Shown here in pieces: positions 2,099 through 51,619 of a stretch of 64,000 nucleotides of DNA. A program made the position numbers and the translations under genes. Position 1 is the first letter of the stretch, and the number at the start of each line of letters is the position of its first letter. The notes beneath the pieces were generated by a model. It was not told the DNA's origin. It made no database searches and was given only the letters and a program-made list of their open reading frames with translations. Source of the stretch: an uncultured virus (IMG/VR IMGVR_UViG_3300008261_000015) (taxonomy: Duplodnaviria; Heunggongvirae; Uroviricota; Caudoviricetes); the IMG/VR virus record IMGVR_UViG_3300008261_000015. One strand, written 5' to 3'.

Positions 2099-2443
2099 AA
2101 AAAGCCAAAAAATTAGGCATAAATGCAACAATGTTGCACCCCCACCCTCGAAAAATGATCACTTTCCCATCTGGGCCGCCTCGCGTAGTTTTGGGGTATA
2201 ACCCAAATAGTACAAATATCTAACGAAATATTCACATTATCGTGACAGCTTTTTCAAAAAATGACACTGGATTCCAGACTTTATGTACGATAACTTGCTG
2301 ATAGTCAGGAGTATGACAAGAATGCTCACTTTTATTACGTAAAATAAAAAAAAATAAAAACGTATTTATAGAAATATATATATATAATTTGCCCTCTTTT
2401 TTCTGACATTTCTGTCATGGCTTGATTATTGATCTTGGTTTCC

Positions 2444-2451
2444 TATATTTG
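2444..2451 (+). promoter_or_regulatory. -7 promoter element TATATTTG upstream of groEL
   Basis: matches Bacteroidota TAnnTTTG; same element at 4809, 5657, 14561, 20914, 23417, 27853, 35299, 49378, 49748, each just upstream of a start codon. Confidence 0.7.
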
Positions 2452-2472
2452 CGAACAATCAAATTTACTATT

Positions 2473-4020
2473 ATGAAGGTATACCTTGACCATGAAGGTC
2501 GCACAAAACTTTTGCAGGGTGTAAAGACCCTATCGGCTGCTGTGAAGAGCACGCTAGGTCCTAGCGGAAAGACGGTGATTATTGACTCACCTAACCACAC
2601 ACGTGGGCTTACTATTACCAAGGATGGTGTAACTGTTGCCAAGAGTGTTGTCTTGGATGACGCGTTGGAGAACATGGCTGTTCGAATCGTTCGGGAGGCC
2701 AGTGAGAGAACTGCGTTGACAGCAGGGGATGGAACTACGACAGCAGTTGTCATTACGGAGGCCCTAGTTGAGGGTGGGATGGCAATCAATGCGGACTGGA
2801 GCAGCGTGAAGCAGATCGAGGAGTTGGCGAAGCGGACTGAGAAGGAGCTTGAGAAGGTGTCCGTGCGGACAACCAACAGGTGGATCGAGGACATTGCCAC
2901 GATCTCTGCCAATAATGATCGGCACATTGGGAAGTTAATTGCTGACACGTACAAGAAGGTTGGCAAGAATGGCCTGGTGACGGTGGAGAAGTCCATGACT
3001 ACTGAGACCTACGCTGAGGTGATCAAGGGCATCCGCATGGATAGGGGTTATACGAACAAATTGTTCGTGAACAACCAGAAGAATGACGAGTTCGTGGCTG
3101 AAGATTGCTACATCTTGATGACTGACATCGAGCTTTCGTCCATTGAGCAAATCATTAACCTACTTGGGTCGTTTGTGCAGAGTCGGAAACCATTGTTGAT
3201 TGTGGCACCGTGCTCTCAGAACTTTACAAACACCATTGCTCTCAACAAAATGCAGAGCAACTTGAAGTTCTGCATCGTGGAGCCTCCTCAGTTTGGCTAC
3301 AAACAACACGAGTTGATGCAGGATTTGGCGGTTGCGACTGGTGGTCGTTTCTTTAGTGCCCTTGGAGGTGACGATACTGCGCTAATTTCGTTCACAGATC
3401 TTGGTCTCGCTTCGAAAGTAGTGGTATCAAGAGAGAAAACCGTGCTAGTACCGTCTCCAAGCGTAGACAATACGGAGACACTTGACGTTTTGGTGAGTGA
3501 ATTGAAGGCCGCGCACGACCAGGCTACTAAAAAAACAGATAGAGACTTCATCAAACAGCGTATTTCGTACCTAACTGGTGGTGTTGGCATCATTCACGTG
3601 GGTGGAAACTCAGATGTTGAGCAAAAAGAGCTGTACGATAGGGTAGATGACTCAGTTTGCGCAGTGCAGTCCGCCATGGAAGAGGGTATCGTTGCTGGTG
3701 GTGGGCTGGCCTTGTACCGTGTTGGGCAGAAGTTGCTCAAAGAGAGTTACAACGACAAGGTTGTGGAGTGTTTTGTGAATGCCATACAGGCACCACTGAA
3801 GCAAATCATCAAGAATGCGGACATTGACCTTGAAAAGACCATCAACGTAATTGAGAACTTGACTCTTGGAAACGAGGGATTGAACGTAAAAACTGACGAG
3901 CTTGGCGATATGTTCGAGATGGGGATCGTTGATCCCCTAAAAGTAACCAAGACCGCTCTGAAGAACGCGGTCTCTGTAGCAAATACAATTTTAACTACTA
4001 ATGCAATAATTTCGAACTGA
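2473..4020 (+). CDS. groEL: group I chaperonin GroEL (Cpn60)
   Basis: TLGPSG, TITKDGVTVAK, AGDGTTTA, IATISANND, AMEEGIVAGGG, GIVDPLKV; ATG 2473 preferred; no C-terminal GGM tail. Confidence 0.97.
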   Translation: MKVYLDHEGRTKLLQGVKTLSAAVKSTLGPSGKTVIIDSPNHTRGLTITKDGVTVAKSVVLDDALENMAVRIVREASERTALTAGDGTTTAVVITEALVEGGMAINADWSSVKQIEELAKRTEKELEKVSVRTTNRWIEDIATISANNDRHIGKLIADTYKKVGKNGLVTVEKSMTTETYAEVIKGIRMDRGYTNKLFVNNQKNDEFVAEDCYILMTDIELSSIEQIINLLGSFVQSRKPLLIVAPCSQNFTNTIALNKMQSNLKFCIVEPPQFGYKQHELMQDLAVATGGRFFSALGGDDTALISFTDLGLASKVVVSREKTVLVPSPSVDNTETLDVLVSELKAAHDQATKKTDRDFIKQRISYLTGGVGIIHVGGNSDVEQKELYDRVDDSVCAVQSAMEEGIVAGGGLALYRVGQKLLKESYNDKVVECFVNAIQAPLKQIIKNADIDLEKTINVIENLTLGNEGLNVKTDELGDMFEMGIVDPLKVTKTALKNAVSVANTILTTNAIISN

Positions 4021-6259: not shown

Positions 6260-9200
6260 ATGAGATTTTCGGACTTTCTATTAGTAAGCGATCCTGCGGA
6301 TTTAGACTTCATTGTTGGTTATGCTGATGATCAGAACATTAGAATTGATGTGTCTGATTTTTTTGCTAGTAACATTAGTGGATCTGGGACACCTGGTTAT
6401 GTTCCTGTTTTTACATCAGCACAGGTAATAGGTGATTCAGTTATTTTTCAACATGGGTCAAACATTGTAATCGGAGGTGTAAATTCTCTAGGTTACAAGC
6501 TTGCTGTTAGTGGAAGTCTTTACGCTTCAAATGGAGCCGTAATAAATAGTACTATTTCAGGTGCTGACGCACTTAGAGTTATTGGTGGGGATGGTGACAT
6601 TTTTGTTATCCCAAACGACTTAGGTCAGCCAATATCTAGCTTAAGACGTATAAACCATCCGCCTGCTGTTCTCACAACTGAGTCTGCAACTTTAGGTCAG
6701 CTTAACAGCGCTATATCAACCCTTGAGGGAGATATTGAGATTTTGTTAGATCTTAAGGTTGACAAAACTTCCGTAGGAGTTCCTAACGGGGTTGCTTCTT
6801 TGGATGCTGGCGGTAAAGTGCCATTGTCTCAAATTCCTGACTCAATCATTGGCCAGGTACAGTACATGGGAACCTGGAACGCGCTTACTAATACACCAAC
6901 ACTAAATCCTCTTGTACCAGAAGAAAAAGGACACTACTACGTTGTTTCTGTAGCTGGAGTATTTGGAGGTGTAGATTATGCAGTAGGTGACTGGATTATA
7001 TCTAATGGATTAATTTGGGAGAAGGTAGATAATACTGATGCTGTTACAAGTGTCTTTGGAAGAATTGGAGCTATCCTGGCTTTGGAAGCAGACTACCAAT
7101 CTTTCTACCCAAGACTTTCTCAAGCTTACGATAATCCTACGTGGATTAACACGCTTGCTTTCTCAAAGATTACTGGCGTTCCTCCATTCCTTTTGGAGAA
7201 CCAAACCATAACGCTCTCTGGAGACATTACGGGCAGCGGTAAGACGTCCATTTCTACAACCATATCAGATAATGCTGTAACAGATTCGAAGCTCAGGAAC
7301 AGCGCAGGAACGTCTGTAATAGGACGTGCGTCATCTACTACTGGTGACCCAGCTGATATCCAAGCTACCACTGATGGACACGTGTTACTTAGATCTGGCG
7401 GGAATTTATTGTTTGGACTTATTTCAAGTGATTCGATTGGATCAATTGACTGGTCAAAAATAACAAACACTCCAACCACATTAAGTGGGTATGGAATTAC
7501 TGACGCTTATACTAAGACTGAGGCTGACAATAAGTTTGTTCCTTATACTGGAGCAAATGCTAACGTCAATCTTGGTTCAAACAATATTACAGCTAACTCA
7601 TTCATAAAAGCTGGAGGTACATCTGCTCAATTCTTGAAGGCTGACGGTTCTGTAGACACTAGTCAATACGTACCTACTACAAGATCGATAAATGCTGGTA
7701 CTGGTTTAACTGGTGGGGGCAACTTGTCATCAGACGTAAATATCGCTTTTGATACTACTTGGGGTGATACCAGGTATGCTTATAGAACTAGACAGTTAAC
7801 AATTAATGGAACTACATACGATCTATCGGCAGATAGAATATGGAATGTAGGTACCGTTACTTCAGTTGGACTTTCTATGCCATCTGCATTTACTGTATCT
7901 AACAGCCCTGTTATAGGAGCTGGAGTATTAACAGTTGTAGGGGCTGGTACTATTTTGGAATATGTTAGGGGAGATGGTTCTTTAGCTACGTTCCCATCAT
8001 TAACAGGGTATGTTCCTTACACAGGAGCAACCCAAGATGTCAACCTTGGCACCTATGGATTAATAGGTGACTTTGCTCAATTTAACACAACAACAACAAA
8101 TATTCCTTCCGCTGAAGGAGTGATGTCCTGGGACAATACTGATGGAACTGTACGTCTATCTGTTAAGGGTAATATATACAGTGTTCCGATTGGACAGAGC
8201 GTGATATCTAGAGTTCGTAATAATACTGATGTTGATTTATTAAGAACGAACTATCAAGTTGTAAAAGTATCTGGAGCTCAAGGGCAAAGGCTTGCTGTTT
8301 CATTAGCTCAGGCTAATAATGACTTAAATAGTGCCTCGACACTTGGTTTGGTTTGTGAGAACATATCAAAAAATCAAGATGGATTTATTATTAATATTGG
8401 TCAGATTGTCAACGTAAACACTACTGGTAATCTTCAGGGTGAAACATGGCTTGACGGTGATGTACTTTACTTAAGTCCAACCATTGCTGGGGCAATTACA
8501 AACATAAAACCAGTTGCCCCTCAGCATACTGTTATTCTTGGATACGTTGAGTACGCTCATGCTAATAATGGTAAGATCTATGTAAAGATTGACAATGGAT
8601 ATGAGCTAGAGGAGTTGCATGATGTTTCTGCTGAACCGTTTGTAAATAATGGATTGCTATACAGAGACACAACTCTTAATCTTTGGAAGAGTGCGACTAT
8701 CTCTACTATCCTTGGATATACTCCAGCCCCTCAAGGTAACTACATTACTTCACTTACAGGAGAGGCTACTGCTAGTGGTCCTGGTGCCGCAAGTGTTACG
8801 CTATCAAACTCTGCTGTAACAGGTAAGGTATTGACAGGATTAAACATAGCAGGAAATGAAATCCTTAGTACGGACTCAATATTAACTGCTTTTGGAAAGC
8901 TTCAGCATCAAGTAAACCAATTAGTTGGTGGATTGCAATATCAGGGTACTTGGAACGCATCAACAAATACTCCTACTATTACTTCAGGGGTTGGAACAGA
9001 AGGCGCATTCTACATTGTAAGTGTAGCTGGTACAACAAACATTAATGGGATTAATGATTGGCAGGTTGGTGACTGGATTGTATTCCATGATGTTGCTTGG
9101 CAGAAGGTCGATAACAGTGATTCAGTAAGCAGTGTATTTGGTAGGGTTGGTAACATTGTTGCTAATCAATCTGATTACTCAGCATTCTATCCTTTAATAG

Positions 9201-12200
9201 CAGATATTAAAAATGGAGTTCTTACTGTTCAGGGAACAGGAGTACTTTCAGGTTCAGGCACATTTAGTGCTAATCAGGCTACTAACAACACGATTACGCT
9301 CACACATAGTTCTATATCAAGAACAGACACAACATCTGCTCAGACTCCGTCTTTTGGTGGATCATTTAATGTTGTTGACAGTGTCACATCTTCTACTGAA
9401 GGGCATATCACTGCTATTGATACTAAGACTGTAACTATTCCTTCTACTGTTGCTACTTCTACGCAAACAGGATTGTTAAGCAATGCTGATTGGATTACAT
9501 TTAATGGCAAGCAGAATACTATTACACTTACAACAACTGGAACAAGTGGAGCGGCTACGTTAATAGGATCTACATTAAATATACCTAACTACGCTCCTGA
9601 TTTAAGTGGATACGTAACTTTAGCTACTGATCAGACTATTACTGGCCTTAAAACTATTGTTAGAGGTGGTGATGTGTTAAACTTTAAGATTGGCACTGAT
9701 ACTCTTTATGGTTTGAGGGTAGCTTATAATCAAAATGAGCTTGTCCCAAGTGGAGAGGCTACATGGAGCTTTGTAAATACTTTCAATAGAAATGGTAGCG
9801 GTTTTGAAACAACTCCTATCTCATTCTTTAGAGGTGTGCTTGTTACAGGAGAAAGACTTTTAAGTGCGTCTATTAACGCAAACCTTCTTGATTACTATGG
9901 TAACAACCCATCTGGTAGATACCCTGTGTATACTTACAATACTGGGGTACAACAGTTCTCTACTGGTATTATTGTTGGAAAGACTACTGGTGTTGTTAAC
10001 GCTGCAACAGGAGCTATTTCTGACTTGCCTTCTGGTGTTGTTGCTAACTTCAATGGTCGAGTTATTGGATCTAACGCTGTAAACTCAAACGAATTTGTTG
10101 CGCTTGGTCAGCTTGGTAGTTATGTTCCAACATCTAGAACTCTTACGATTAATGGAGTAAGTTATGACTTGTCTGCTGATAGATCATGGACTATTACAGC
10201 TGGAGTTTCATCGGTAACTGCATCAAGCCCATTGTTTTCAAGCGGTGGTTCCACTCCTAACATTACCATTCAACAAGCAACTGCATCACAAAATGGATTC
10301 TTATCTAGCTCAGATTGGAATACATTCAATAGCAAAGCAAATGCTAATGGTAGCAACGCAAGTGGTACATGGGGTATTAATATTACTGGTAATGCAGAGA
10401 CTGTTGATGGATTTAGTGCTTCTCAGTCTAATGTTGCAAATAATATTGTTGTAAGAGACTCTAGTGGTTACATCTTTGGTAGCTACATAAACATGACTGA
10501 TGATGGTAATCCAGGAGCAGGAACATCAATTACATCGTTTATTACCAAGCAGGGAGATAATTATTATAGATCTGTTTCTCCTACAAATGCAATGTCTTCA
10601 ATTAGAAGTGTTGCCTCTGGATCTTGGGGTATTAATATTACTGGTAATGCTACGTATGCATTAAACTCTACTAGGCTTTATGCTTCAGATCCTCCATATA
10701 CATACGGGGGTTCATCTCCATATTATATGTACATGAATTATGATGGTGGTAGCTATTGGGAACTTAAAGTTTCTCCAGCTACTCCTGGTACAGTTCGTGT
10801 TGCTTATTCAAATATTTCAGGAAGCTCAGGATCTGCAACAAATCTATATGGGCCAGGAGGATCTTATATTCAAAATACTTCTACAGGAACTTCATATCAA
10901 TATAATTATCAAGTAAGAGAAAATGTTGGAGGGTATGGTAGTACAAATGAAACGTATGCTCCACAATTAGCCTTCCATTGGGCTGGCATAGTAGCATCTA
11001 GTATAATGATGGAATCTAGTGGTAGAATAGCTATTAGAAATAATCCAGGAACTGGTTACGAAAACTTTATAGCTAATAATGTTTGGGCTACAACCGCATT
11101 AAGATCTCCTATTTTTTATGATGAAAATAATACTGCATATTATGTAGATCCTGCATCAGGATCTAGAATGAATTCTATTACCTATGACAATCTTTATTTT
11201 TCAGGAGATACTAGTTATGGATTCCTAGGAAGAAACGTATATGCAGATACAGTAAATGGTAGAGGGTCAGATCCTTTAGAACTTAATTATTACGATGGTG
11301 GAGAGGTTCATATTGGAGCAGGATATTCAAAAACTCTTAGAGCTGGTGCATTATATACTAATGGTGCTGTTTATGGATCTATATTTTATGATTCACAAAA
11401 CACTGCATATTATGTAGATCCTAATAGTACATCAGTATTTAGTAATGTTCAGGCAATTAAAACTTATCAGACTGAAAGATATTTGGATGTACCTGGATCT
11501 AATGATGGGTCATATAGATGGGTTAGATTCCCAATGGGATGGTTTAATGGGGGTGGAATGTCAGCAGAAATTGCTATTTCAAGATCAATTAATGATAATG
11601 GAAACAGTCCTTATGGAGGTTGCACATCTAGATTTATAATAAACTCTCGTGAGTGGCATAGCGGTCAAGATAACATGTGGTATTTTTATACTGAGCATGG
11701 GGCTAATAATGCGGCTAATGGTGCTTATGGTTATTATATTTATCAAGCAGGACCAAGAGATTTAGCTAGTGGAGGTTATTGGTTCTATATGAGGCTTCTT
11801 AGTGGAGTAAGATATAGAATGAGTGTATCTGCTGATATGAACTTTAATGGAAATCAAATGGGTGGTCCTGAATACGATGTTGCGGATCCAGGAGGAATTC
11901 AAAGAATTACATTAGGTTCAGGTGTTATTGGAAGTAATGGTAATTACAATAGATTATCATCACAATATGGATTTTATGGAAGTGACGTAAGAACACCTAT
12001 TTATTATGATTTAGATGATACATTTTATTTAATTGATCCAAATAGTGATTCAAGATTATTAAGATTGGGTATTGGTGGAATAACTCCAGATGTAAGACTA
12101 AGTGTTAGTGGAGACACTCACATATCTAGTACTTTATATATGGGTGGAACAGCTGGTAATTATAATAGCTGGGGATCAAGGACATACATGTCAGGAGGAA

Positions 12201-14197
12201 ACTACTACGTTAATGCTTCAAGGCATGAATGGAATAATGTTGGATATGGATCTACTTGGTCATTTGTAGTAGATGGTGGGGATTCATATATAACTAATTC
12301 TTCAAGAGCTCCAATATTCTATGATTCAAATAACACTGGATATTATTTAGATGCTGCTAGTATATCTAATTTAAACCAAGTTAACTTACAAGGATTCCTG
12401 AGAAGAAATACATCAGCGGCTGGTTATTTAGAAGGGAATTATGGAAATGCCACAAGTGCGAATAGTTCAGCTGCAATTTATACAATTGGAGGATCTTATC
12501 AGCCAGGGACTGAGAGTCTTGGAAACATGTATGGAATTGGTTACACAGTTGGTAATGGAAGTCCTAATCCAGGGCTTGGAATGGGGGGGTGGGGTCTTTA
12601 TGTGGCTTCTGGTGGAACATCTCGTATATTTTTAGATTCAGATAGTGGTGTAGGTATATCTACAAATTCATGGAGAGCTCCAATTTTCTACGACTCTAAT
12701 AACACTAGTTATTACTTAGATCCTGCTAGTACATCAGTACTAAATGGGTTAACGATAGGAGGAAGAACAGCTTTAAATACTGCATATTATCCATTTCACT
12801 CTGGTAGAGATTTTCCAAGTGGAACATTAGTTCAAACTAATATTAACTATTCTGTTACGTACGGAGATCCTTTTATTTTAGAAATTACAGGAAATGCTTA
12901 TGGGGCTCTTATACCTTTTGATATTCAAGTTCAGGGTTATATTTATTCTGACACTATTATTAACGCGGGGGGTATTTCTAATGGAACAAATATTAGTGGA
13001 GTAAGGGCGATAAATTTTAATGGCAACTTATGTTTTTGGTGGCCGTACCAATCTTATTGGCAAGGATTTAATGTTAAAGTTTATTCCGCTTATGCGACAT
13101 ATCCTGAAAACAGAGTAACATCTATAACTGATAGTGCTCAGCCAACCACGTCTAAACAATACAATTTTTCAATTAATCAGTCATTTCATACTGCAAACAC
13201 AAGTTTGTTTTCAAGTTATGACATAACATTTAATAGAGCATCATCCAACACGGACATGCGAGCTCCAATATTCTACGACTCTAATAATACTGGATACTAT
13301 GTTGATCCTGCTGGGACTACAAATTTAAATATACTTCAAGCTGGAGAAACATACTCAACTGGATGGTTTAGGAATAATAATTCAAATACTGGTTTATATA
13401 ATCAGAATACAACTCAACATTGGTCTTCTCAGACTAACGGATACTGGGATGCTTCTAGTACTACATCTATATCTGCAATTAGATTTTGGACTGGTGGACA
13501 CGTTACTTCTTTAAGAGGTTATGTATATGCGGATAATGGTAACAACATTGGATTTTTAAATAGCGGAGGTAACTGGTCATTGCTTTGTGACAATGCTGGA
13601 AATATATTTGCTACAACATCATATAGAGCTCCTATTTTCTATGACTCTAATAACACTGGATATTATTTAGATGCTGCTAGTAACTCTAATCTTGCGGCAC
13701 TTCAAGTTCAGACAGGTGTAGCGACCAACTCTTTCTATGCTACTGGTGCTGGTGGACAAATTACAATTACTGCCGCTACTGGTTCATTTGGTGGATATCT
13801 AAGAACTAGTGGGCACATGGTTCTAGATCAAAGTAATACTGGATACAATGTTTATGTACTTGATGGTAATAGTGTAGGTGTTGTTAAGAATGCTGGTTCA
13901 CAATCCTGGTCTGCATTTTCAGATGCAACAATTAAAACTGTTCACTCTACGATGGAAGATAATCTGTCAAAGCTTCAATCTATCACTCCAATTTATTATT
14001 CTTTTAATAACTTTGCAGACGATAAGAATAGAATAGGTTTGATAGCTCAGGAAGTTCAAGAGCATTTCCCAGAACTTGTTGAAGTAGAACCAAGAACTGA
14101 GAAGTTAACTCTTGACTACACAGGATTGATTCCTGTTCTTCTCGGAGCAATTAAAGAACTAAAAACAGAAATAGAAACTTTAAAAAAACAATTATGA
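6260..14197 (+). CDS. long modular tail fibre with C-terminal intramolecular chaperone (peptidase S74-like)
   Basis: 2645 aa, G/T/S/N-rich, internal repeats; ends SD...K...IGLIAQEVQ..FPELV...DY..LIPVLLGAIKEL. Confidence 0.9.
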   Translation: MRFSDFLLVSDPADLDFIVGYADDQNIRIDVSDFFASNISGSGTPGYVPVFTSAQVIGDSVIFQHGSNIVIGGVNSLGYKLAVSGSLYASNGAVINSTISGADALRVIGGDGDIFVIPNDLGQPISSLRRINHPPAVLTTESATLGQLNSAISTLEGDIEILLDLKVDKTSVGVPNGVASLDAGGKVPLSQIPDSIIGQVQYMGTWNALTNTPTLNPLVPEEKGHYYVVSVAGVFGGVDYAVGDWIISNGLIWEKVDNTDAVTSVFGRIGAILALEADYQSFYPRLSQAYDNPTWINTLAFSKITGVPPFLLENQTITLSGDITGSGKTSISTTISDNAVTDSKLRNSAGTSVIGRASSTTGDPADIQATTDGHVLLRSGGNLLFGLISSDSIGSIDWSKITNTPTTLSGYGITDAYTKTEADNKFVPYTGANANVNLGSNNITANSFIKAGGTSAQFLKADGSVDTSQYVPTTRSINAGTGLTGGGNLSSDVNIAFDTTWGDTRYAYRTRQLTINGTTYDLSADRIWNVGTVTSVGLSMPSAFTVSNSPVIGAGVLTVVGAGTILEYVRGDGSLATFPSLTGYVPYTGATQDVNLGTYGLIGDFAQFNTTTTNIPSAEGVMSWDNTDGTVRLSVKGNIYSVPIGQSVISRVRNNTDVDLLRTNYQVVKVSGAQGQRLAVSLAQANNDLNSASTLGLVCENISKNQDGFIINIGQIVNVNTTGNLQGETWLDGDVLYLSPTIAGAITNIKPVAPQHTVILGYVEYAHANNGKIYVKIDNGYELEELHDVSAEPFVNNGLLYRDTTLNLWKSATISTILGYTPAPQGNYITSLTGEATASGPGAASVTLSNSAVTGKVLTGLNIAGNEILSTDSILTAFGKLQHQVNQLVGGLQYQGTWNASTNTPTITSGVGTEGAFYIVSVAGTTNINGINDWQVGDWIVFHDVAWQKVDNSDSVSSVFGRVGNIVANQSDYSAFYPLIADIKNGVLTVQGTGVLSGSGTFSANQATNNTITLTHSSISRTDTTSAQTPSFGGSFNVVDSVTSSTEGHITAIDTKTVTIPSTVATSTQTGLLSNADWITFNGKQNTITLTTTGTSGAATLIGSTLNIPNYAPDLSGYVTLATDQTITGLKTIVRGGDVLNFKIGTDTLYGLRVAYNQNELVPSGEATWSFVNTFNRNGSGFETTPISFFRGVLVTGERLLSASINANLLDYYGNNPSGRYPVYTYNTGVQQFSTGIIVGKTTGVVNAATGAISDLPSGVVANFNGRVIGSNAVNSNEFVALGQLGSYVPTSRTLTINGVSYDLSADRSWTITAGVSSVTASSPLFSSGGSTPNITIQQATASQNGFLSSSDWNTFNSKANANGSNASGTWGINITGNAETVDGFSASQSNVANNIVVRDSSGYIFGSYINMTDDGNPGAGTSITSFITKQGDNYYRSVSPTNAMSSIRSVASGSWGINITGNATYALNSTRLYASDPPYTYGGSSPYYMYMNYDGGSYWELKVSPATPGTVRVAYSNISGSSGSATNLYGPGGSYIQNTSTGTSYQYNYQVRENVGGYGSTNETYAPQLAFHWAGIVASSIMMESSGRIAIRNNPGTGYENFIANNVWATTALRSPIFYDENNTAYYVDPASGSRMNSITYDNLYFSGDTSYGFLGRNVYADTVNGRGSDPLELNYYDGGEVHIGAGYSKTLRAGALYTNGAVYGSIFYDSQNTAYYVDPNSTSVFSNVQAIKTYQTERYLDVPGSNDGSYRWVRFPMGWFNGGGMSAEIAISRSINDNGNSPYGGCTSRFIINSREWHSGQDNMWYFYTEHGANNAANGAYGYYIYQAGPRDLASGGYWFYMRLLSGVRYRMSVSADMNFNGNQMGGPEYDVADPGGIQRITLGSGVIGSNGNYNRLSSQYGFYGSDVRTPIYYDLDDTFYLIDPNSDSRLLRLGIGGITPDVRLSVSGDTHISSTLYMGGTAGNYNSWGSRTYMSGGNYYVNASRHEWNNVGYGSTWSFVVDGGDSYITNSSRAPIFYDSNNTGYYLDAASISNLNQVNLQGFLRRNTSAAGYLEGNYGNATSANSSAAIYTIGGSYQPGTESLGNMYGIGYTVGNGSPNPGLGMGGWGLYVASGGTSRIFLDSDSGVGISTNSWRAPIFYDSNNTSYYLDPASTSVLNGLTIGGRTALNTAYYPFHSGRDFPSGTLVQTNINYSVTYGDPFILEITGNAYGALIPFDIQVQGYIYSDTIINAGGISNGTNISGVRAINFNGNLCFWWPYQSYWQGFNVKVYSAYATYPENRVTSITDSAQPTTSKQYNFSINQSFHTANTSLFSSYDITFNRASSNTDMRAPIFYDSNNTGYYVDPAGTTNLNILQAGETYSTGWFRNNNSNTGLYNQNTTQHWSSQTNGYWDASSTTSISAIRFWTGGHVTSLRGYVYADNGNNIGFLNSGGNWSLLCDNAGNIFATTSYRAPIFYDSNNTGYYLDAASNSNLAALQVQTGVATNSFYATGAGGQITITAATGSFGGYLRTSGHMVLDQSNTGYNVYVLDGNSVGVVKNAGSQSWSAFSDATIKTVHSTMEDNLSKLQSITPIYYSFNNFADDKNRIGLIAQEVQEHFPELVEVEPRTEKLTLDYTGLIPVLLGAIKELKTEIETLKKQL
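11102..13682 (+). repeat. seven RAPIFYDSNNTGYY(L/V)DP-type repeats
   Basis: copies near 11102, 11375, 11990, 12305, 12674, 13259, 13625. Confidence 0.9.
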
Positions 14198-14550
14198 TTT
14201 ACACTTGGAAAGTAACAGGCATGAAGGGCATTGACTTGCCAGAAGAGCCAAACACAATTATCCAGACTTACTGGACAAAGACTGGAGTAGATGAGCAAGG
14301 AAATGAAGGTGTGTTCTCAGGAGCGACTCCTTTCAATCCTGCTGACATTGATCCTGAAAATTTCGTTCCTTACGATCAGCTAACAGAAGAGATTGTACTA
14401 TCTTGGATTCAGGCTGTTGTAGTTGGGTCTTACGAAGAGCATGTAAACGCTCAGATTCAAAAGCAGATTGATGGCAAGAAGGTTAAAGAAGAGCCACTTC
14501 CTTGGGCACCCCCCACACCTGATCCTACACCAACTGCTATCGCAGAATAA
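14194..14550 (+). CDS. tail-fibre-associated protein
   Basis: YTW.V...FVPYDQLTEE.VL.W...LPW pattern, coupled to fibre gene. Confidence 0.7.
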   Translation: MIYTWKVTGMKGIDLPEEPNTIIQTYWTKTGVDEQGNEGVFSGATPFNPADIDPENFVPYDQLTEEIVLSWIQAVVVGSYEEHVNAQIQKQIDGKKVKEEPLPWAPPTPDPTPTAIAE

Positions 14551-14981: not shown

Positions 14982-15001
14982 TATCACAACATTATGTAAG
15001 G

Positions 15002-15041: not shown

Positions 15042-15097
15042 GCCAAATTTTATGTCGTAAAAAAGCGCTATTTTTGAGAAAAAAAACGACAAGATAA

Positions 15098-15307
15098 ATG
15101 AGTAATATTCCACCGTTCGAGCAAGTTCTGGGTTTAGGCGTTATAGGGACAGTTACCTCGATAATCGACATGAACGAGTCACTTAAATTCCTAATTTTAA
15201 TATTCACGTTTCTTGGTTTGGTAGTCAAATTATGGGAGCAGATTAAAAAAAGTGAGTTTTTTTTGAATGATGTTACAAATATTTGGCGCAAAATCTTTAA
15301 GAAGTAA
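15098..15307 (+). CDS. holin/antiholin-like membrane protein
   Basis: 69 aa, hydrophobic segments, basic C-terminus, head of lysis cassette. Confidence 0.6.
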   Translation: MSNIPPFEQVLGLGVIGTVTSIIDMNESLKFLILIFTFLGLVVKLWEQIKKSEFFLNDVTNIWRKIFKK

Positions 15308-15309
15308 TT

Positions 15310-15540
15310 ATGAATAAGTTTTTAATTTGGGCAAAAGGGTTTCTATCCGAAAACGGAGAAGCGTCAAGCAAAAGATTTGTTGGAGTGTTTAGTGCTATCG
15401 CGCTTTGTTACACGCTATATGCTAACCACGATGCAGTCAATGAGCCATCTGAGGCTCTTGTATATTCAGTAGCTGCTTTGTCTGCTGCTGCGCTTGGAAT
15501 TAGTGCTGCTGAAAAGATATTCAAAAAACCCACTGAATGA
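15310..15540 (+). CDS. holin-like 2-TM protein
   Basis: SSKRF followed by two TM helices, upstream of endolysin. Confidence 0.7.
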   Translation: MNKFLIWAKGFLSENGEASSKRFVGVFSAIALCYTLYANHDAVNEPSEALVYSVAALSAAALGISAAEKIFKKPTE

Positions 15541-16289
15541 AGAACCTAAGCAAGGAGGAACTATTGAGTCGAATGGAGGCAATTAATCGAAGCAACGCGA
15601 TTATTTACTTCGACTTAAATGGTTTTATTCTTGGGGTAAATGTAATCTTCTTGAAGGCAATGGGGTTAGGTGAAGATGAGCATAACAAATTAATCGGGAA
15701 GCATCACTCAATATTTGTGAGTTACGAATATTCAAAGTCCGATGAGTATACTAAATTTTGGGAAACGCTACGAGACGGGAAGTATTTTGAAGGTGAATTT
15801 GAAAGACGTAAAATAGACGGAAGCCCAATCTATTTGCAGGCGACTTACAACCCAATCTTTGATGAAAGCGGATCGATTACTAAAATAATGAAAATCGCAA
15901 CCGATATAAGTCAAACTATTGTAAGCAAGAATAAAATTGAGGAACTTTCAAATAGTATAAAGGCTGAGTTGGAAAACTCTAACAAGTTAAAAGCTGCCAT
16001 TGAAATAGAAAAGGACGCAGCGCTAAATGACTTGGACGCAACTATCAAGAAGAGTCAAAACGAGTTAATTAAGGTGATTGTAAAGTCTGCTTTGTTCGTA
16101 ATTATGAGCGTAGGATTTATCACCACCCTAATGTACTCCTTTGCAATTTTATCAAATAAGGATACGCAGATTATAGGCTCAACTTGGAGCAATATGTTTT
16201 CAGTATTATTAACAAATGCCTTCTCTATAGTAGGCACAATCATGGGTATTAAATACGCAACTTCAGAAGATAAAAAATCAAAAGAATGA
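15537..16289 (+). CDS. PAS/PAC sensor domain, coiled coil and two TM helices (PAS-holin-like fusion)
   Basis: AIIYFDLNG.I...N..FL...G...LIGKHHSIF...EY..FWETL..G..FEGEF.R....G..IYLQATYNPI.D..G...KIMKIATDIS, then coiled coil and two hydrophobic helices. Confidence 0.85.
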   Translation: MKNLSKEELLSRMEAINRSNAIIYFDLNGFILGVNVIFLKAMGLGEDEHNKLIGKHHSIFVSYEYSKSDEYTKFWETLRDGKYFEGEFERRKIDGSPIYLQATYNPIFDESGSITKIMKIATDISQTIVSKNKIEELSNSIKAELENSNKLKAAIEIEKDAALNDLDATIKKSQNELIKVIVKSALFVIMSVGFITTLMYSFAILSNKDTQIIGSTWSNMFSVLLTNAFSIVGTIMGIKYATSEDKKSKE

Positions 16290-16891
16290 ATACTACAAAT
16301 CTAGCAGCAAAACTACCAAAGGCAGCATCTACTTATATGGTGCAGATTGTTGAAAAATACAACATTAAAAACCCTTTACATCTCGCGCATTTTCTAGCAC
16401 AGATCGGTCATGAATCGGGAAACTTTCAATATGTTTCTGAGAACCTAAACTATTCTGCTGATGGCCTTAGAAAGATATTCCCTAAGTACTTTGCTGACAA
16501 CATTACTGCAATGAAGTACGCTAGAAATAGCGAGGCTATTGGGTCTAGAGTTTATGCAAATAGAATGGGAAATGGAGATGAGGCTTCTAAGGAAGGATTC
16601 AAATTCCGTGGTAGAGGGTATATCCAGTTAACTGGAAAAGCAAATTACAAGGCATTTTCTGACTTCATTAAAGAAGACTGTGTTGCAAACCCAGATCTAG
16701 TAGCGACAAAGTATCCTATGGACTCAGCAATTTGGTTCTTCGACAAGAATAAACTTTGGGACATTTGCTCAAAAGGTGCTGACGATGCTACAGTAACCGC
16801 GGTTACTAAAAGAGTAAATGGCGGTACACATGGACTTGCTGACAGAATTGCTAAATTTAAATTGTACTATTCACTCTTAGAGCAAGCTTGA
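16286..16891 (+). CDS. endolysin, glycoside hydrolase family 19
   Basis: AHFLAQIGHESG, ENLNYS, YANRMGNG, FRGRGYIQLTG..NY, TKRVNGG..GL.DR. Confidence 0.93.
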   Translation: MNTTNLAAKLPKAASTYMVQIVEKYNIKNPLHLAHFLAQIGHESGNFQYVSENLNYSADGLRKIFPKYFADNITAMKYARNSEAIGSRVYANRMGNGDEASKEGFKFRGRGYIQLTGKANYKAFSDFIKEDCVANPDLVATKYPMDSAIWFFDKNKLWDICSKGADDATVTAVTKRVNGGTHGLADRIAKFKLYYSLLEQA

Positions 16892-16892
16892 T

Positions 16893-17426
16893 ATGAAAGA
16901 TGAAGTTCTAAAAGGATTGGTATTTTTTGCTTTAGGATGCATTGTGGCAGTTTTGCTTTATCCTTCTGATGAGTATGAAAGTACTTATAAAGTTGTGACA
17001 GAGGTAAGAACTGACACCGTGTACAATGAAAGTGTCGACACTATTTATGTGCCAAAAACTAAGATTAAAACAGAGTTTTTAAGGGATACAATCTTGGTTG
17101 ATTACAAGCCTACTATTAATGCATTTGAGACTACTTTTCCATTTGAATATGGAAGTACACAGGTTAGCGGAGAAGTGCTTGGAGAGGTACTTAAAATGAC
17201 CGCTAAGACTGAGTATAGTGTACCAGTGGTTACGAACACAATTACGAATACAGAAACCAATACTATTGTACAAAAGCCAAAAGGTTTGTATATTGGCGCA
17301 GGAATTAACTCTTTGCTCCAGCCTAGCGGTAAAGTGGCTTACTTAGACAACAAGTATTTGTTCGAGTACCAATACCAACCGCTGCAAAAGATGCATCAAA
17401 TCGGGGTTAGTAAAAGAATTTTCTAA
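16893..17426 (+). CDS. spanin-like membrane-anchored protein
   Basis: N-terminal hydrophobic anchor, DT-rich stalk, C-terminal beta strands; follows endolysin. Confidence 0.55.
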   Translation: MKDEVLKGLVFFALGCIVAVLLYPSDEYESTYKVVTEVRTDTVYNESVDTIYVPKTKIKTEFLRDTILVDYKPTINAFETTFPFEYGSTQVSGEVLGEVLKMTAKTEYSVPVVTNTITNTETNTIVQKPKGLYIGAGINSLLQPSGKVAYLDNKYLFEYQYQPLQKMHQIGVSKRIF

Positions 17427-17675: not shown

Positions 17676-17895
17676 GGTATCTATTGGACCAGACTACAAG
17701 AGCAGTGCAATGCACTACGTTGTTGGTCAGCCCGTCTTTAATGAAATGTACAGGATACATGATATTAGAGAGAAGGATGGACGAGTGTCAATCTATGTGA
17801 TTCACGGAGAAGATGGTTCTGGAGAAATTTATCTCTGGAAGACCTTTAACCAGAACATGGCTATAACCTTCGAGTTTAATCTTGATTTTGAATGA
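17662..17895 (+). CDS. conserved hypothetical protein
   Basis: MLIRKVSIGPDYK..AMHY.VGQ; ATG at 17662. Confidence 0.65.
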   Translation: MLIRKVSIGPDYKSSAMHYVVGQPVFNEMYRIHDIREKDGRVSIYVIHGEDGSGEIYLWKTFNQNMAITFEFNLDFE

Positions 17896-18470
17896 GGTCA
17901 CCATTTCACTTTATCGTAGAGCCAGTTGGTGGATCTAGGTATGATAACGTGAAGAGCATCGGTGGAATAGACTTTATCACAAGCTCTTCTAAGGAGGATC
18001 ACAAGGCGTCTAACAGACACGCTAAGGTACTTGCTACCCCTATTGGGTATGAAGGAGAGGTTATGCCTGGAGACATCGTTATTGTGCATCACAACGTGTT
18101 TAAGTACTACAACGACATAAAAGGTAACGAGAGAAGTGGTCGTGCATTTCTGGGAGAAGGAATCTTTCTAATTGACGACGATCAGTTTTACTTGTATAAA
18201 AGAGATGGAGACTGGCAGGCACACTCTAGGTATTGCTTTGTAATACCAGAGAAAAGACAAGACAACTTCATTATGAAGAAACTAGGTACCGAAGAGTACT
18301 TACGTGGCACGTTAGCATATCCAAACAGAGAACTTATTGATAAGGGGTTGAAGAAGGGGGACAAAGTTGGTTTCCTTCCTGAGAGTGAATATGAGTTCCA
18401 GATAGATGACGTTACTATGTATCGGATGTATTCTAAAAACATTTGCTTAGAATTAAATGGAGATAAATGA
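17892..18470 (+). CDS. tandem double GroES-like co-chaperonin
   Basis: two GroES-like units: FIVEP...AKVLATP...V.PGDIVIV and CFVIP...GTLAY...GLKKGDKVGF....YEF.ID....YRM. Confidence 0.6.
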   Translation: MRSPFHFIVEPVGGSRYDNVKSIGGIDFITSSSKEDHKASNRHAKVLATPIGYEGEVMPGDIVIVHHNVFKYYNDIKGNERSGRAFLGEGIFLIDDDQFYLYKRDGDWQAHSRYCFVIPEKRQDNFIMKKLGTEEYLRGTLAYPNRELIDKGLKKGDKVGFLPESEYEFQIDDVTMYRMYSKNICLELNGDK

Positions 18471-37809: not shown

Positions 37810-40800
37810 ATGAACGAGTTAGAAAAACTTTACAATGTATTAATTGAAAAGGGTTTATATACTAAGTCTTTTCAAGAATTTCAGCAGAGATATAGTCAAG
37901 ACGAAGAATACAAGAATAAAGTATATAACGTCGTTTCTAATAAAGGTCTTTATACTAAAGATAGAAATTCTTTTTTCCAGAAATATTCAGGAGTAGCTCA
38001 ATCTTTGGAAGATTTAAAGGTTGAATACAAAGAACCTAAAAAAAAAGTCGCTACGGGCTCGTCTGGAACGGCTGGTTCATCGGTATCTGCAAGGATTCCT
38101 AGATTTGATGCAGCGAAGCCTGAAGTAGTAGCTAGTGAATCTACTAGAGTTCCTAATGTTAGAATCCCTCAAAAAGAGCAAGCTCCTGACAAGATAGATG
38201 AAAAACTACAAATTATTCAGGAGGAAGAAAGAGAGGCGAAGCGAATTATTGAAGAGGCGCAAAGAGTTGAAGATCAAAAAGCCTATGACAAGCTTGAAAA
38301 AAATCCATTTGTAAGTTTTGGTAAGAAGTTTTGGGAAACTTTATCAATGCAAATTCCTTCCGCAATGGAAGCAAAGGGTGCTCAAAGAATAAGCAATATG
38401 GCAGAATCTGACATAAGATTATTGAAGTCAGTAGCTAATGTTCCAGATGATGAAATAATTGAAATGCCAAGTCTTACAGATCCTAGAGCTGGAAGAACTA
38501 CAAAATATAAAGCTGGAGAATATAAAAAACTCATTACAGATAAAATAGCCAAAGGAAATAATGCAACTAGCGCTGCATTAGAATTAGCTATTAAACTAAA
38601 TAAAGATTTAGAGAATAGCGATGTTATATCATCATTATCTCAAGTAAAAGATGGATATGATTTAGTAAATTTTATATCGTCTTCTGTTGGACAAGCAACA
38701 GCTCAAATTCCATTAGCGGTTGCGACTGGTGGTGGTATGAGTTACGCTATGGAGTCTGGTAACATATACCTTGAAACTGTTAAAGAAATAGCTAAAAAGG
38801 AAGGAATAACACCTATTCAAGTTATTCAACAAGGTAAGGATCAAGTTGCGTTAGCAGAAATAGGTGGGGCATTATCTGGAGCTCTTGAGCTTTTTGGAGC
38901 TAAAAAAGTTTTAGATATATTCGGACTAGAAAATATTAAAAAAGATTTAAGGAAGAAAGCATTAACAATTTTAGTAAATAGCCAGATTGAGGGGGCTACT
39001 GAAGTAGGGCAAGAATATGTATCTAGCGCAGCTAAAGGAATTGGAGTTGAAGGAGAATTAAAAACTCCAACTTTGACTCAATCTCTTGACGCTTACGCAG
39101 CTGGTATGTTTGGAGCAGCTGGTATACAATCTCCAGCATTATTATTTGGGTCAAAAAAGACAGCAGAAACCAAGAAAGAAGAAGAGAAGAAAGAAGAAGA
39201 GAAGACTGAGTTTAAGCCAGGCGAAACTGTAACTTTAGACACAAAAACTAAAACTCCAAAAGTTCAGCCTGTTGAAGAAATACTTGAACCAGTAATACTA
39301 GATTACGGAGACTCTAAATTTGGATTCATTAGAGATGAATCTGGAGATATGGAGCTCACCAAAGAGTTGGATACCGAAGAACAAGCAATATCCATGGCGG
39401 AGATGCTTGGGAAGACCTACAAAAAACTTGACTTTACTATTCAAGAAGTAGATTCAACAGATCCGTATACTCCAACTAAATATAAAATTGTCGCCAGAGA
39501 AAAGGCTCCTACTCAAGCTGAAGTATCATACACTATTGATGGGTCTAAAATGGACCGAGCAAGGTTCGTTGCTGCTGTAGGCGAGGCTAAGACTGAGGAT
39601 GCTCTTAATGAGTTGGATACAACTGATCCAGATGTTCAGAAAATCATTGACGCTAAGAGAGCAGAGATTACTGGTCAGCCAGTCACTAAAGCAGAACCTC
39701 AAACCAAAGAAGGTCAAGAAGAAGTAACTCCTGAAGTAGATAGTAGAACTATTGCTGAAAGACAGGTGGAGACTGAGTCGAAAATAAAGCGTAAAGATTT
39801 ATTTATGGGTGTAGGTGAATTTTCACTTGAACTTGGAGGTAGCGATAAATCAGCTGTTCCTGTAACTCATAAGGAAGTAAATGGAATTGAATTTGTGGAG
39901 TACGCACACCCTGACACTGGCAGCGTTGATGTGGTTGTTACTGGAACCTCAGAAAATGATTTTGTTGGATTTTACAGAATATATGAAAATGGTAAGCCAA
40001 CAAATAAGTGGAGTTCTAAATTTGAAAACCAATCAAGAAATAAAGAATCATTTAAAACAATGATTGGTGGTGTACAAGAAATGTTACCACAAGGACATGA
40101 GTACACTGAAAAAACAAGCATATCAACTGATGGGTTAAGGGTATGGGGACAGCAATTAGATAGAGGTTACGAGTTGCAATATGATGAGAATGGTAAATTA
40201 AAAACTCAACAAGTTGCTATTAATGGTGATGCAATACAAAATGTTCTTGGAGTACCTGTTCAGCCAGGACAATTTGATAATATAAGAGTAAATTCTGAAG
40301 AACAATTTAATACAGTAAAAAAAGCATTGTTGCCATTTTTACAAAAATTTGGACTAAACGAGAGCAATATAAGACGAGATGGAAGCGCTGTAAAAATTGA
40401 CTTACCTATACTAAAAAAACAATCTCAAACCAAACAAGGTCAAGAAAAAATAAATGAGATTGAAAAAAGAAGACAGGAAGAATTAAGTAATCTTGGTCAA
40501 AAACAATTAACCAGTGGTTTTAATAAACTAACTGAAGCCAAAACTCCAGAACAAGCTGCAAAAGTTATAAAAGAAATTGAACAAAATGTTAGCCAAGGAG
40601 CTAAGTTGTCATCAGAGCAATCTAAACAATTATCAGATGCTAAAGAGCAACTAAAAAATAATGGTTATGAAATTATAGAAAGCCCTACTTATAGACAAGG
40701 AGAAAATAAAATAGTTCAAAGTTCTAAAGAATATGAAGGGGAAGTTCTTACAGAGCAGCAGGTAAAAGAGATTGAAAGCTCAATTAATAGTAAAGAAAAA

Positions 40801-51602: not shown

Positions 51603-51619
51603 ATATGTTTATGTTTATG

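Follow-up and report, generated by a model that had tools for sequence, protein, structure and literature searches.

The window, a 64,000 nucleotide stretch of DNA from an uncultured freshwater Caudoviricetes virus [IMG/VR IMGVR_UViG_3300008261_000015], contains a gene for a 250 aa protein in which a PAS domain is predicted to be joined through a long helical stalk to a two-helix membrane hairpin. The gene is an optional component of the lysis cassette, and its product belongs to a large, phage-only family of 'input - stalk - hairpin' proteins. The location of an optional PAS-helix-hairpin protein between a holin-like gene and an endolysin gene suggests that the phage probably times the bursting of its host by an intracellular signal. 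For a lytic phage, the time of lysis is the principal life-history decision; to our knowledge, it has so far been found to be set by holin clocks or, in a small number of phages, by superinfection-sensing antiholins. If a sensor in the cassette, or a phage-encoded kinase relay, is indeed wired to a membrane effector, this would be a new route for reading host physiology.

Gene structure and predicted architecture

Table 1. Coordinates of the PAS-stalk-hairpin gene, the segments of its product and the adjacent genes in the window
Feature	Position	Strand	Basis or remark
69 aa small membrane protein; its gene opens the closely packed cassette	15098..15307	+	ORF, hydropathy
76 aa two-TM holin-like protein, cluster c1	15310..15540	+	Hydropathy, neighbourhood in relatives
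PAS-stalk-hairpin gene, 250 aa	15537..16289	+	ATG start
PAS domain, residues ~13-125	15573..15911	+	Pfam profiles, model, Foldseek
Stalk (cytoplasmic part of a single long helix), residues 126-176	15912..16064	+	AlphaFold2 model
TM1, residues 177-205	16065..16151	+	Hydropathy peak 185-199
Short inter-TM loop, residues 206-216	16152..16184	+	Model loop 206-210; mean pairwise identity 0.88
TM2, residues 217-241, invariant	16185..16259	+	Hydropathy peak 221-235; alignment of 56 distinct sequences
Short charged C-terminal tail and stop codon	16260..16289	+	Least conserved part (pairwise identity 0.47)
GH19 endolysin	16286..16891	+	PF00182 Glyco_hydro_19 (E 5.1e-8); phrog_181 endolysin (E 3.3e-67)
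177 aa protein, cluster c8, one N-terminal TM	16893..17426	+	Hydropathy peak 8-22

Four Pfam profiles, PAS_3 (E 4.1e-9, residues 35-120), PAS_9 (E 1.6e-8, residues 26-126), PAS (E 8.8e-8, residues 20-124) and PAS_4 (E 2.1e-5), match the 250 aa protein, all with scores exceeding the Pfam gathering thresholds. An AlphaFold2 model generated from a 57-row alignment (mean pLDDT 76.4) has a PAS fold at residues 6-123, an unbroken helix at 125-205, a short loop and a second helix at 211-244. Pfam, the model and hydropathy confirm the order of parts given in a preliminary description of this DNA, namely a complete PAS domain, a coiled-coil stalk, two TM helices and a short charged tail, and the final 12 residues include 4 K/R and 3 D/E. 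An N-in/C-in topology is suggested by the type of PAS domain and by lysines on either side of the TM helices. Hence the sequence and the model point to a cytoplasmic sensor joined to a membrane hairpin.

The earlier statement that there is no kinase, MCP or GGDEF output domain also holds, as MCPsignal, HisKA/HATPase_c, GGDEF or any other output domain was not found in the 250 aa protein by Pfam at E≤1. In PHROGs the sole matches were two families of unknown function, phrog_1544 (E 8.6e-4) and phrog_20335 (E 0.084). The best relatives reach E 1e-178 in a protein search, and with relatives of this strength the observation of the gene is far beyond chance.

The lysis cassette

The PAS gene overlaps the stop of the 76 aa gene by an ATGA at 15537-15540 and the start of the endolysin gene by a second ATGA at 16286-16289, and both junctions are as previously described. 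The 76 aa protein, c1, has hydrophobic segments at residues 23-37 and 50-64 and a charged tail, and the 69 aa protein has segments at 9-24 and 29-45 and a basic C-terminus. Neither protein matched a Pfam or PHROG family. Among 83 viral loci that contain a relative of the PAS gene, c1 was found in 48 and adjoins the PAS gene in 39, and a homologue of the 69 aa protein was found in 7. The window endolysin has no hydrophobic segment in its hydropathy profile, i.e. no signal or SAR segment, and its gene, which is 69% identical to Flavobacterium phages, was the only one matched in a DNA search. The 177 aa c8 protein, which has a homologue in 16 of the 83 loci and matches no Pfam or PHROG family, is from its position a possible candidate for an envelope or spanin-like component.

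Occurrence in related viral loci

In 76 of the 83 related loci an endolysin gene is located within 3 kb of the PAS gene, immediately after it in 53 and immediately before it in 8. This supports the assignment of the PAS gene to the lysis cassette. These endolysins are of four unrelated types, M15 (40 loci), GH19 (24), GH24 (10) and phrog_3000-like (2). Of the 7 loci without an endolysin, 6 are truncated by the end of the contig immediately downstream of the PAS gene, and locus L067, which has full flanks, has no recognisable endolysin nearby.

The PAS gene is absent from 43 of 80 loci that carry c1; in 29 of these 43, c1 and the endolysin gene are direct neighbours, spaced by -1 to 18 bp. The PAS gene is therefore not an essential holin in this lineage, where two small two-TM candidates are already present upstream. 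It sits exactly between c1 and the endolysin gene in 34 of the 80 c1 loci, and other inserts in the same slot are a spanin-like pair (10 loci), two multi-TM proteins (3 loci) and two small TM proteins (1 locus). c1 is missing from 35 of the 83 PAS-gene loci, and copies of the gene that are 87-88% identical to that in the window occur beside Phage_holin_4_1 or other TM proteins. The ORF calls and the TM scan used simple in-house methods, and this crude scan detected no other small TM protein within three genes in 14 of the 83 loci, several of these 14 being cut off by a contig end.

The C-terminal 125 aa are matched by 96 cluster representatives and by at least 590 viral stretches. A conserved TM2 motif, a single helix running from the input to TM1, an N-terminal input part and a viral context define the family, and the window gene has all four. 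The family is modular and abundant in freshwater viral data (hundreds of loci). The hairpin is covered by 3 of 80 kept genome-contig matches, all of them MAG contigs of 5-32 kb with lysis genes. A larger count of 4611 matching proteins takes in any PAS protein of similar length and does not represent family size. Among annotated phage records, 3 were matched, in the PAS part only. In a literature search that covered parts of the published texts, including PMC7824862, no description of this PAS-hairpin lysis system or of a PAS-holin was found, in agreement with the preliminary description.

The stalk and the membrane hairpin

The helix between the sensor and TM1 is unbroken in both predicted structures, and its length is quantised in heptads. 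The motif at the end of the PAS domain and the motif preceding TM1 are 50 residues apart in 71 of the 83 loci (12 unanchored), and an independent PAS fusion has a stalk of 43 residues. With strict anchors, in an untuned run, all 6 stalk lengths in 51 sequences fall into one residue class modulo 7; looser anchors gave spurious distances from wrong anchor sites. Anchors refined post hoc place 66 of 67 sequences, with 8 lengths, in one class, the single exception being a stalk of 15 residues.

TM2 is 100% identical across 56 distinct sequences. For this segment pN is 0 and crude pS is 0.86, with variation in 22 of the 25 codon columns and 45 nucleotide haplotypes. Selection on the 25 residues thus appears absolute, or near-absolute, at the protein level while synonymous sites are near saturation. 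Ser or Thr occupies positions 218, 222, 226, 230 and 234, Asn positions 219 and 227, and Gly positions 233 and 237. All 14 invariant positions of TM1 fall on the same half of the helix, its variable positions being mostly on the opposite half, whereas TM2 has no variable face. TM2 is unchanged beside the c1 family, Phage_holin_4_1, an XhlA-like protein or no recognised neighbour.

Class II holins and pinholins such as S21-68 of phage 21 have two TM helices, a charged C-terminal tail and a gene placed directly before that of the endolysin. The predicted topology of the hairpin, its charged C-terminus and the endolysin-adjacent gene correspond to this pattern, and to that extent the earlier description of a holin-like tail stands. 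It does not extend to family membership or necessity, as the hairpin has no similarity to Pfam or PHROG holin or antiholin families (window protein plus 38 and 16 relatives) and the gene is dispensable where c1 abuts the endolysin gene. A protein of 250 aa is also much larger than holins, which argues against a holin-type effector, and identification as a small holin without a soluble domain, or as a member of a known holin family, was rejected given the size, the PAS domain and the Pfam and PHROG results. In the ESM Atlas the hairpin part matched unnamed viral clusters alone (scores ≤0.88).

The PAS domain and its closest relatives

Foldseek matched the PAS domain to many PAS/LOV structures at a probability of 1.00, with short LOV proteins, the NifL PAS domain and MmoS at the top. 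The best sequence match among solved structures is MmoS [PDB 3ewk] (E 5.7e-8), and the FAD-PAS domain of NifL [PDB 2gj3] is among the top folds. The nearest solved PAS domains are flavin binders, and by analogy a flavin or redox-type signal might be considered, though only as a lead. LOV photoreceptors carry a flavin-adduct cysteine in a conserved turn; in the window protein S58 of the motif GKHHSIF stands in the phototropin adduct-cysteine column, and a LOV photoreceptor was rejected. The domain is under purifying selection (pN/pS 0.11).

The window PAS domain is 47% identical to PAS2 of a phage-encoded kinase, and another fused PAS domain is 58% identical to PAS1 of the phage kinase. Of 19 nearest cellular PAS carriers checked, 7 are Bacteroidota hybrid kinases and 11 are MCPs of other phyla. 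It had been suggested that the phage captured a chemoreceptor PAS domain; with the phage kinase and the Bacteroidota hybrid kinases among the nearest relatives, this comparison with the phage kinase and 19 cellular carriers does not specifically support such an origin. One source labels relatives of the window protein as MCPs, an identity that was rejected given the lack of an MCPsignal domain (PF00015) at E≤1, and the label reflects PAS similarity alone.

Input parts and relatives lacking a PAS domain

Fused forms of the hairpin protein carry PAS, tandem PAS or GAF as the input. Relatives of the C-terminal part without PAS, which the preliminary description had proposed to look for in lysis cassettes, do exist, with a 36-residue head on the same hairpin. 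A receiver gene precedes in 75 of 80 of these, and a PAS-PAS-HATPase_c kinase gene is at position -2 in 62; the phage kinase has HATPase_c and PAS matches and no HisKA at E≤0.01. The expected cassette position was found in part of them, a GH19 endolysin gene lying within 3 kb in 38 of the 80, and the link to lysis is therefore weaker for these kinase-type relatives. For the other 42, no endolysin gene occurs within 3 kb, and DnaK and tRNA-synthetase-like genes are in the vicinity.

Sampled hairpins were always accompanied by an input part. A search for hairpins without a sensor yielded 52 complete ORFs, every one of them with an input part (51 head types of 224-225 aa and 1 tandem PAS). The 97 aa P0154 was considered as a sensor-less hairpin and rejected, as its first 20 residues and the hairpin were not matched jointly at any viral locus. 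P0179, P0195 and P0196, in which a head or PAS start is joined directly to TM2, may be assembly or gene-call artefacts, as may P0133, P0137 and P0155, in which fragments of SOUL, TsaD and GT2, respectively, precede the hairpin.

Proposed role and alternatives

Our tentative interpretation, which we rate somewhat short of an even chance, is that the gene product is an accessory effector of lysis timing that is gated by its sensor and acts through a self-assembling hairpin. The PAS domain, probably as a dimer, would take up a signal inside the infected cell, and the signal would pass mechanically along the register-keeping coiled-coil stalk directly into TM1. It would thereby switch the TM1/TM2 hairpin to another state within the inner membrane, and the hairpin would self-assemble there as a holin- or pinholin-like trigger, helping or hindering the firing of whichever holin the phage has. 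Where no other candidate is nearby, the hairpin may itself be the holin. Self-assembly is favoured over recognition of one particular holin. Dimerisation, the direction of control (speeding or delaying lysis) and a pore-forming or depolarising activity are parts of this model that we infer.

A broader, somewhat doubtful extension is that the family could constitute a private signal chain of phages that infect freshwater Bacteroidota-type hosts, in which the output is the invariant hairpin and not transcription. The chain would take the form of a three-gene relay (PAS kinase, receiver and head-stalk-hairpin protein) or of one-piece fusions with PAS, tandem PAS or GAF. In that case the hairpin would serve as a universal depolarising trigger, gated by the sensor, that fires or holds back lysis with any holin and endolysin, and the time of bursting would be set by the energy or redox state of the cell.

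Alternatively, the product could be a sensor-controlled antiholin whose hairpin binds the phage's holin, here the 76 aa or 69 aa protein, in the membrane and inactivates or primes it, with the state of the PAS domain setting its release. Such a protein would be a counterpart of lysis inhibition that senses the cytoplasm. Like antiholin genes, the PAS gene is accessory and can be dispensed with, it lies between c1 and the endolysin gene in 34/80 c1 loci and next to c1 in 39/83 loci, and translational coupling at both ends would give fixed ratios. Known lysis inhibition likewise involves a sensing antiholin bound to a holin, according to excerpts of PMC11413866 and PMC8385771. However, an interface specific to one partner should change along with that partner, and TM2 is the same in all 56 sequences although the neighbouring candidate holin switches family. 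As there is also no similarity to any annotated antiholin family in PHROGs, we consider an antiholin rather doubtful.

The invariance of TM2 fits a conserved host membrane target equally well as a self-assembling trigger. The protein could accordingly be a membrane-anchored sensor with a role other than lysis, for example in superinfection exclusion, in disturbing a conserved host membrane protein or host signalling, or in late envelope maintenance, and would owe its position to a late, mosaic region that tolerates insertions. The acceptance of other inserts in the c1-endolysin slot (10, 3 and 1 loci) and the 42 of 80 kinase-type loci that lie near DnaK and tRNA-synthetase-like genes, with no endolysin within 3 kb, are consistent with this. 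Yet those inserts are themselves lysis-type genes, the ATGA overlaps tie the gene to both neighbours, and adjacency to the endolysin is kept through four endolysin types, which is hard to obtain by chance, making a non-lysis role unlikely.

A spanin-like or purely structural coiled-coil membrane protein with a non-signalling PAS fold would account for a long coiled coil with a membrane anchor in a lysis cassette and for a PAS domain with no assigned cofactor or ligand, but is highly improbable given that C-terminal TM helices, an N-terminal cytoplasmic-type PAS domain and no signal peptide are the reverse of an i-spanin (N-terminal TM and periplasmic coiled coil; rejected as an identity), that the PAS domain is under purifying selection at the pN/pS given above, that the same hairpin is tied to a kinase and receiver in relatives, and that cassettes contain separate spanin-like candidates.

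Its abundance, its modular build and the strongly selected TM2 make the family a sharp, testable target and a possible part for switchable lysis in engineered bacteria.

Comparison with known systems

Linkers between PAS/LOV domains and their effectors work in heptad steps. The best fold and sequence matches of the window PAS domain with its C-terminal helix are PAS/LOV-coiled coil-effector proteins, comprising short LOV proteins and LOV-histidine kinases [PDB 7a6p, 7r5n, 8a52, 4gcz], the NifL PAS domain [2gj3] and MmoS [3ewk]. The effector in the window protein is predicted to be a membrane hairpin instead of a kinase or a DNA- or RNA-binding domain, and the PAS domain has S58 in place of the LOV adduct cysteine.

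Pinholins of the S21-68 type share with the hairpin two TM helices, a presumed N-in/C-in topology, a charged tail and a TM2 rich in Ser, Thr, Gly and Asn. In contrast to these, the window protein has ~175 cytoplasmic residues ahead of the hairpin in its 250 aa, matches no family and is optional beside other holin-like genes. The window endolysin lacks a SAR or signal segment, and its release would therefore require more than a pinhole.

Excerpts of PMC11413866 and PMC8385771 describe lysis inhibition in phage T4 as involving the holin T and the antiholins RI (periplasmic) and RIII (cytoplasmic), with RI a small periplasmic protein that is said to sense superinfection. In T4, as proposed here for the window, an accessory phage protein that senses a cue sets the time of holin-mediated endolysin release. 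There is no sequence similarity, and the sensor here would be a cytoplasmic PAS domain, GAF domain or relay on a coiled coil with its own two-TM hairpin. In F1-cluster mycobacteriophages, two holin-like proteins, one of them two-TM and N-in/C-in, jointly regulate lysis according to an excerpt of PMC13056207. The presence of more than one membrane protein in the cassette, including one of this topology, is shared with the window, but the mycobacteriophage proteins have no sensor domain, are from another host type and are not homologous.

The kinase-type relatives resemble two-component systems with single-domain receivers. Their hairpin gene directly follows a PAS kinase gene and the gene of a separate receiver, an order that makes the hairpin protein resemble a relay output. 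The window itself differs in that no two-component kinase or receiver domain was found by Pfam or PHROG in the PAS gene or its six neighbours. The literature covered, in part as excerpts, contained no description of a phage-encoded relay that has a membrane hairpin as its output.

Transcription signals

In one metatranscriptome run, small contigs cover 15136-15318 and 15353-15559, the latter spanning the junction of c1 and the PAS gene with zero mismatches. A further contig at 16140-16290 has 13 mismatches and continues into dissimilar sequence. As DNA can occur in such libraries, the contigs are at most a weak hint of transcription. A sigma-70 scan detected 17 promoter-like sites where 11.9 were expected, and a terminator scan detected 4 terminator-like sites where 2.5 were expected. 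These scans are uninformative, and promoters of another kind are probably used by the host.

The PAS gene within a five-gene cassette

The PAS gene is the third of five closely spaced genes (15098..17426), listed in the Table with other features discussed here. It had been described from the sequence alone as a PAS domain with a holin-like membrane tail, overlapping both neighbours by ATGA junctions and lacking an output domain. The open reading frame was confirmed as real, with the junctions at 15537-15540 and 16286-16289. Four Pfam PAS families were above threshold over residues ~20-126, and no output domain was found in Pfam at E<=1. The AlphaFold2 model (57-row alignment, mean pLDDT 76.4) has a PAS fold (residues 6-123) followed by a single continuous helix (125-205), which a short loop joins to a second helix (211-244). 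These helices span the stalk (126-176) and a hairpin made up of TM1 (177-205), a loop (206-216) and TM2 (217-241).

The window is phage DNA, with genes for terminase, portal, virion proteins, and GroEL- and GroES-like proteins, and replication genes on the opposite strand. The 2645-aa ORF terminates immediately 5' of the cassette, and relatives of its C-terminal part (cluster c3, tail-fibre-like by position) adjoin the PAS gene elsewhere. A relative of the DUF7936 protein was detected by tblastn in 7 of 83 related loci.

Table. Features of the window and of related loci
Feature	Coordinates	Strand	Details
GroEL-like chaperonin	2422..4020	+	phrog_5725, E 1e-129
2645-aa ORF	6260..14197	+	giant ORF
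DUF7936 protein	14194..14550	+	E 3.3e-13; between 2645-aa ORF and cassette
69-aa gene	15098..15307	+	two hydrophobic segments
76-aa gene (cluster c1)	15310..15540	+	two hydrophobic segments, charged end
PAS gene (250 aa)	15537..16289	+	ORF, PAS profiles, AlphaFold2 model
GH19 endolysin	16286..16891	+	PF00182 E 5.1e-8, phrog_181 E 3.3e-67; without hydrophobic segment
177-aa gene	16893..17426	+	single N-terminal TM segment
GroES-like co-chaperonin	17892..18470	+	phrog_13932, E 3.6e-22; directly past lysis cassette
3319-aa ORF	37810..47769	+	giant ORF
tRNA-Thr (anticodon TGT)	51619..51691	-	lone tRNA
Slot insert: TM/coiled-coil protein + 119-aa lipoprotein (spanin-like pair)	~3190..3890		n=10: L264, L265, L268, L269, L271, L277, L286, L289, L293, L296
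Slot insert: two 92/93-aa multi-TM proteins			n=3: L258, L279, L280
Slot insert: two small TM proteins			n=1: L298
Kinase-type neighbour, L221 (example)	3381-5243
Kinase-type neighbour, L220 (example)	3322-4152
d19 gene, L203 (example)	4692-5300	-	202-aa protein, weak GAF match (E 0.0014)

Relatives of the PAS gene are linked to lysis genes

The viral collection contains 266 relatives of the PAS gene, and 80 viral loci together with 3 MAG contigs were analysed. The best 120 whole-protein matches are longer (356-386 aa), carrying an extra PAS copy, and cover 93-96% of the query at 67-79% identity. One PAS is present in 70 of the 83 loci and two in 13, so the one-PAS form is common and not a single deletion event. 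Of 80 matches listed from the genome collection, only 3 cover the hairpin, all in MAG contigs (5-32 kb) with lysis genes; the remaining listed matches cover the PAS part alone, at <=50% identity.

Neighbours were identified from our own ORF calls, BLASTP clustering and annotation of cluster representatives. In 76 of the 83 loci an endolysin gene is no more than 3 kb away, which bears out the proposed association with lysis. It directly follows the PAS gene in 53 loci, directly precedes it in 8 and is placed two genes downstream in 9. It belongs to one of four unrelated kinds, Peptidase_M15 (40), GH19 (24), GH24 phage lysozyme (10) or phrog_3000-like (2). Six of the 7 loci without an endolysin stop at a contig edge right behind the PAS gene; L067, with complete flanks, has none nearby. 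The c1 gene, encoding the 76-aa holin-like protein, is present in 48 loci and adjoins the PAS gene in 39. Other neighbours include Phage_holin_4_1 (7) and XhlA-like proteins (7), as well as several spanin-like-looking lipoproteins or single-TM proteins.

The PAS gene is an optional part of the cassette

A search with the c1 protein recovered 80 loci, and a locus was scored as lacking the PAS gene only where the sequence downstream extended for 900 bp or more. The PAS gene separates c1 from the endolysin gene in 34 loci, is absent from 43, and 3 are cut. Where it is absent, c1 directly abuts the endolysin gene in 29 (gap -1 to 18 bp), and in the other 14 the slot is filled by other genes (Table). 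As c1 loci are often without it, the PAS gene is accessory to a mosaic lysis cassette, and it is not the essential holin of the c1 lineage.

TM2 is invariant

Mean pairwise identity among 56 distinct one-PAS sequences is 0.84 for the PAS, 0.72 for the stalk, 0.77 for TM1, 0.88 for the loop, 0.47 for the tail and 1.00 for TM2. However, 22 of the 25 TM2 codon columns are variable, with 45 nucleotide haplotypes, and pN is 0 against a crude pS of 0.86, indicating selection at the protein level rather than recent spread of a DNA segment. The pN/pS ratios for the PAS and stalk are 0.11 and 0.18. On a helical wheel all 14 invariant positions of TM1 fall within 280 to 100 degrees and the variable positions mostly at 120-260 degrees, suggesting that one side of TM1 faces lipid. 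TM2 has no variable face, and includes Ser/Thr at 218, 222, 226, 230 and 234, Asn at 219 and 227, and Gly at 233 and 237; it appears to be constrained all round, as in an oligomer core or against a fixed partner.

Interchangeable inputs and stalk register

When the C-terminal 125 residues were searched against 1.84 billion cluster representatives, 96 matched; their N-termini are diverse, and a few of these may be artefacts. Among the inputs are a different PAS type (P0135, an independent fusion) and a GAF (P0130); the commonest is a small head with a very long helix. In P0179, P0195, P0196, P0182 and P0190, a PAS start, head or kinase N-terminus is fused straight to TM2; these could have arisen by natural deletion or by chimeric assembly at the invariant TM2 sequence.

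The head type is encoded in at least 590 viral stretches, of which 80 loci were kept for context. Its model (pLDDT 88) has a 36-residue head, a helix (37-184), a loop and a second helix (190-221). A receiver-domain gene is immediately upstream in 75 of the 80 (4 cut, 1 other), and a PAS-PAS-HATPase_c gene is second upstream in 62 (11 cut); HisKA gave no match in this kinase-like gene at E<=0.01. PAS-less homologues of the hairpin, which the preliminary description proposed to look for in phage lysis cassettes, exist; a GH19 endolysin with PG_binding_1 is within 3 kb in only 38 of the 80. These kinase-type loci (L161-L240) are on large viral contigs of up to 322 kb. Near the kinase-receiver-hairpin trio they carry a full Hsp70/DnaK gene (E 6.5e-259) together with a class II tRNA-synthetase-like gene, and in several loci the d19 gene is directly behind the hairpin gene on the opposite strand.

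Stalk length in the head type was measured from the start of the long helix to a motif preceding TM1. With strict anchors (51 sequences) the lengths are 45, 52, 59, 66, 87 and 94, and all six share one class modulo 7. Looser anchors yielded some false distances and were then refined post hoc, placing 66 of 67 anchored sequences, with eight lengths, in one modulo-7 class (18 of 85 unanchored); the exception is a head-type protein with 15 residues between anchors. Among the PAS fusions, 71 of 83 loci have a corresponding distance of 50 residues (12 unanchored), and P0135 has one of 43. Whole-heptad steps are as expected for a coiled coil delivering input to TM1 at a fixed rotational register.

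Origin of the PAS domain

The PAS of the window is 47% identical to PAS2 of the phage kinase (129 residues, E 4e-37), and that of P0135 is 58% identical to PAS1 (116 residues, E 7e-46). The one-piece proteins therefore share two sensor types with the three-gene relay and, judged from these sequences, look like short circuits of the relay, or the relay like their expansion. The 19 cellular PAS carriers checked comprise 11 PAS-MCPsignal proteins from other phyla, 7 hybrid histidine kinases, all from Bacteroidota, and a cut GAF-PAS protein. Capture of a chemoreceptor PAS, as suggested earlier, is not specifically supported, since the likeness to cellular PAS (<=50% identity among matches listed) is no greater than that to the phage kinase.

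The nearest solved structure by sequence is MmoS (3ewk, E 5.7e-8), which is also among the nearest folds, together with short LOV proteins and the FAD-containing NifL PAS (2gj3). A LOV photoreceptor was rejected because the position of the adduct cysteine is aligned to S58. That the signal is of a flavin or redox type is no more than a lead.

Possible modes of action

The PAS gene may, tentatively, encode a sensor-gated membrane trigger that acts by itself. TM2 is constant while adjoining holin candidates switch family, copies 87-88% identical to that of the window occur in cassettes lacking c1, and the hairpin has the position and predicted topology of a class II holin. Some loci have no other small multi-TM protein nearby in a crude scan, though some of these loci are cut. 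Against such a trigger, the gene is optional, the hairpin resembles no holin family in Pfam or PHROGs, two holin-like genes are immediately upstream in the window, and the endolysin link is weaker in kinase-type loci. A sensor-gated antiholin that binds the holin is considered less likely than the trigger, and a role outside lysis slightly less likely again. A spanin-like or structural protein is highly improbable.

Occurrence in other datasets

In the literature consulted, including parts of a jumbo-phage review (PMC7824862), no PAS-, GAF- or kinase-coupled lysis protein was found described. At least half of the words of a 2.6-kb stretch of the window were found in 19 runs, 3 of which may be the source, all labelled as lake water, freshwater or aquatic metagenome. 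A 2479-base contig from a different study spans window positions 14900-16785 with 7 differences. One RNA library gave small contigs, one spanning the c1/PAS-gene junction with zero mismatches, which is a weak hint of transcription. Another metatranscriptome contig of this library (run X20) matches the hairpin end (window 16140..16290) at 13 differences before passing into dissimilar sequence, presumably from a relative with a different endolysin behind the same gene.
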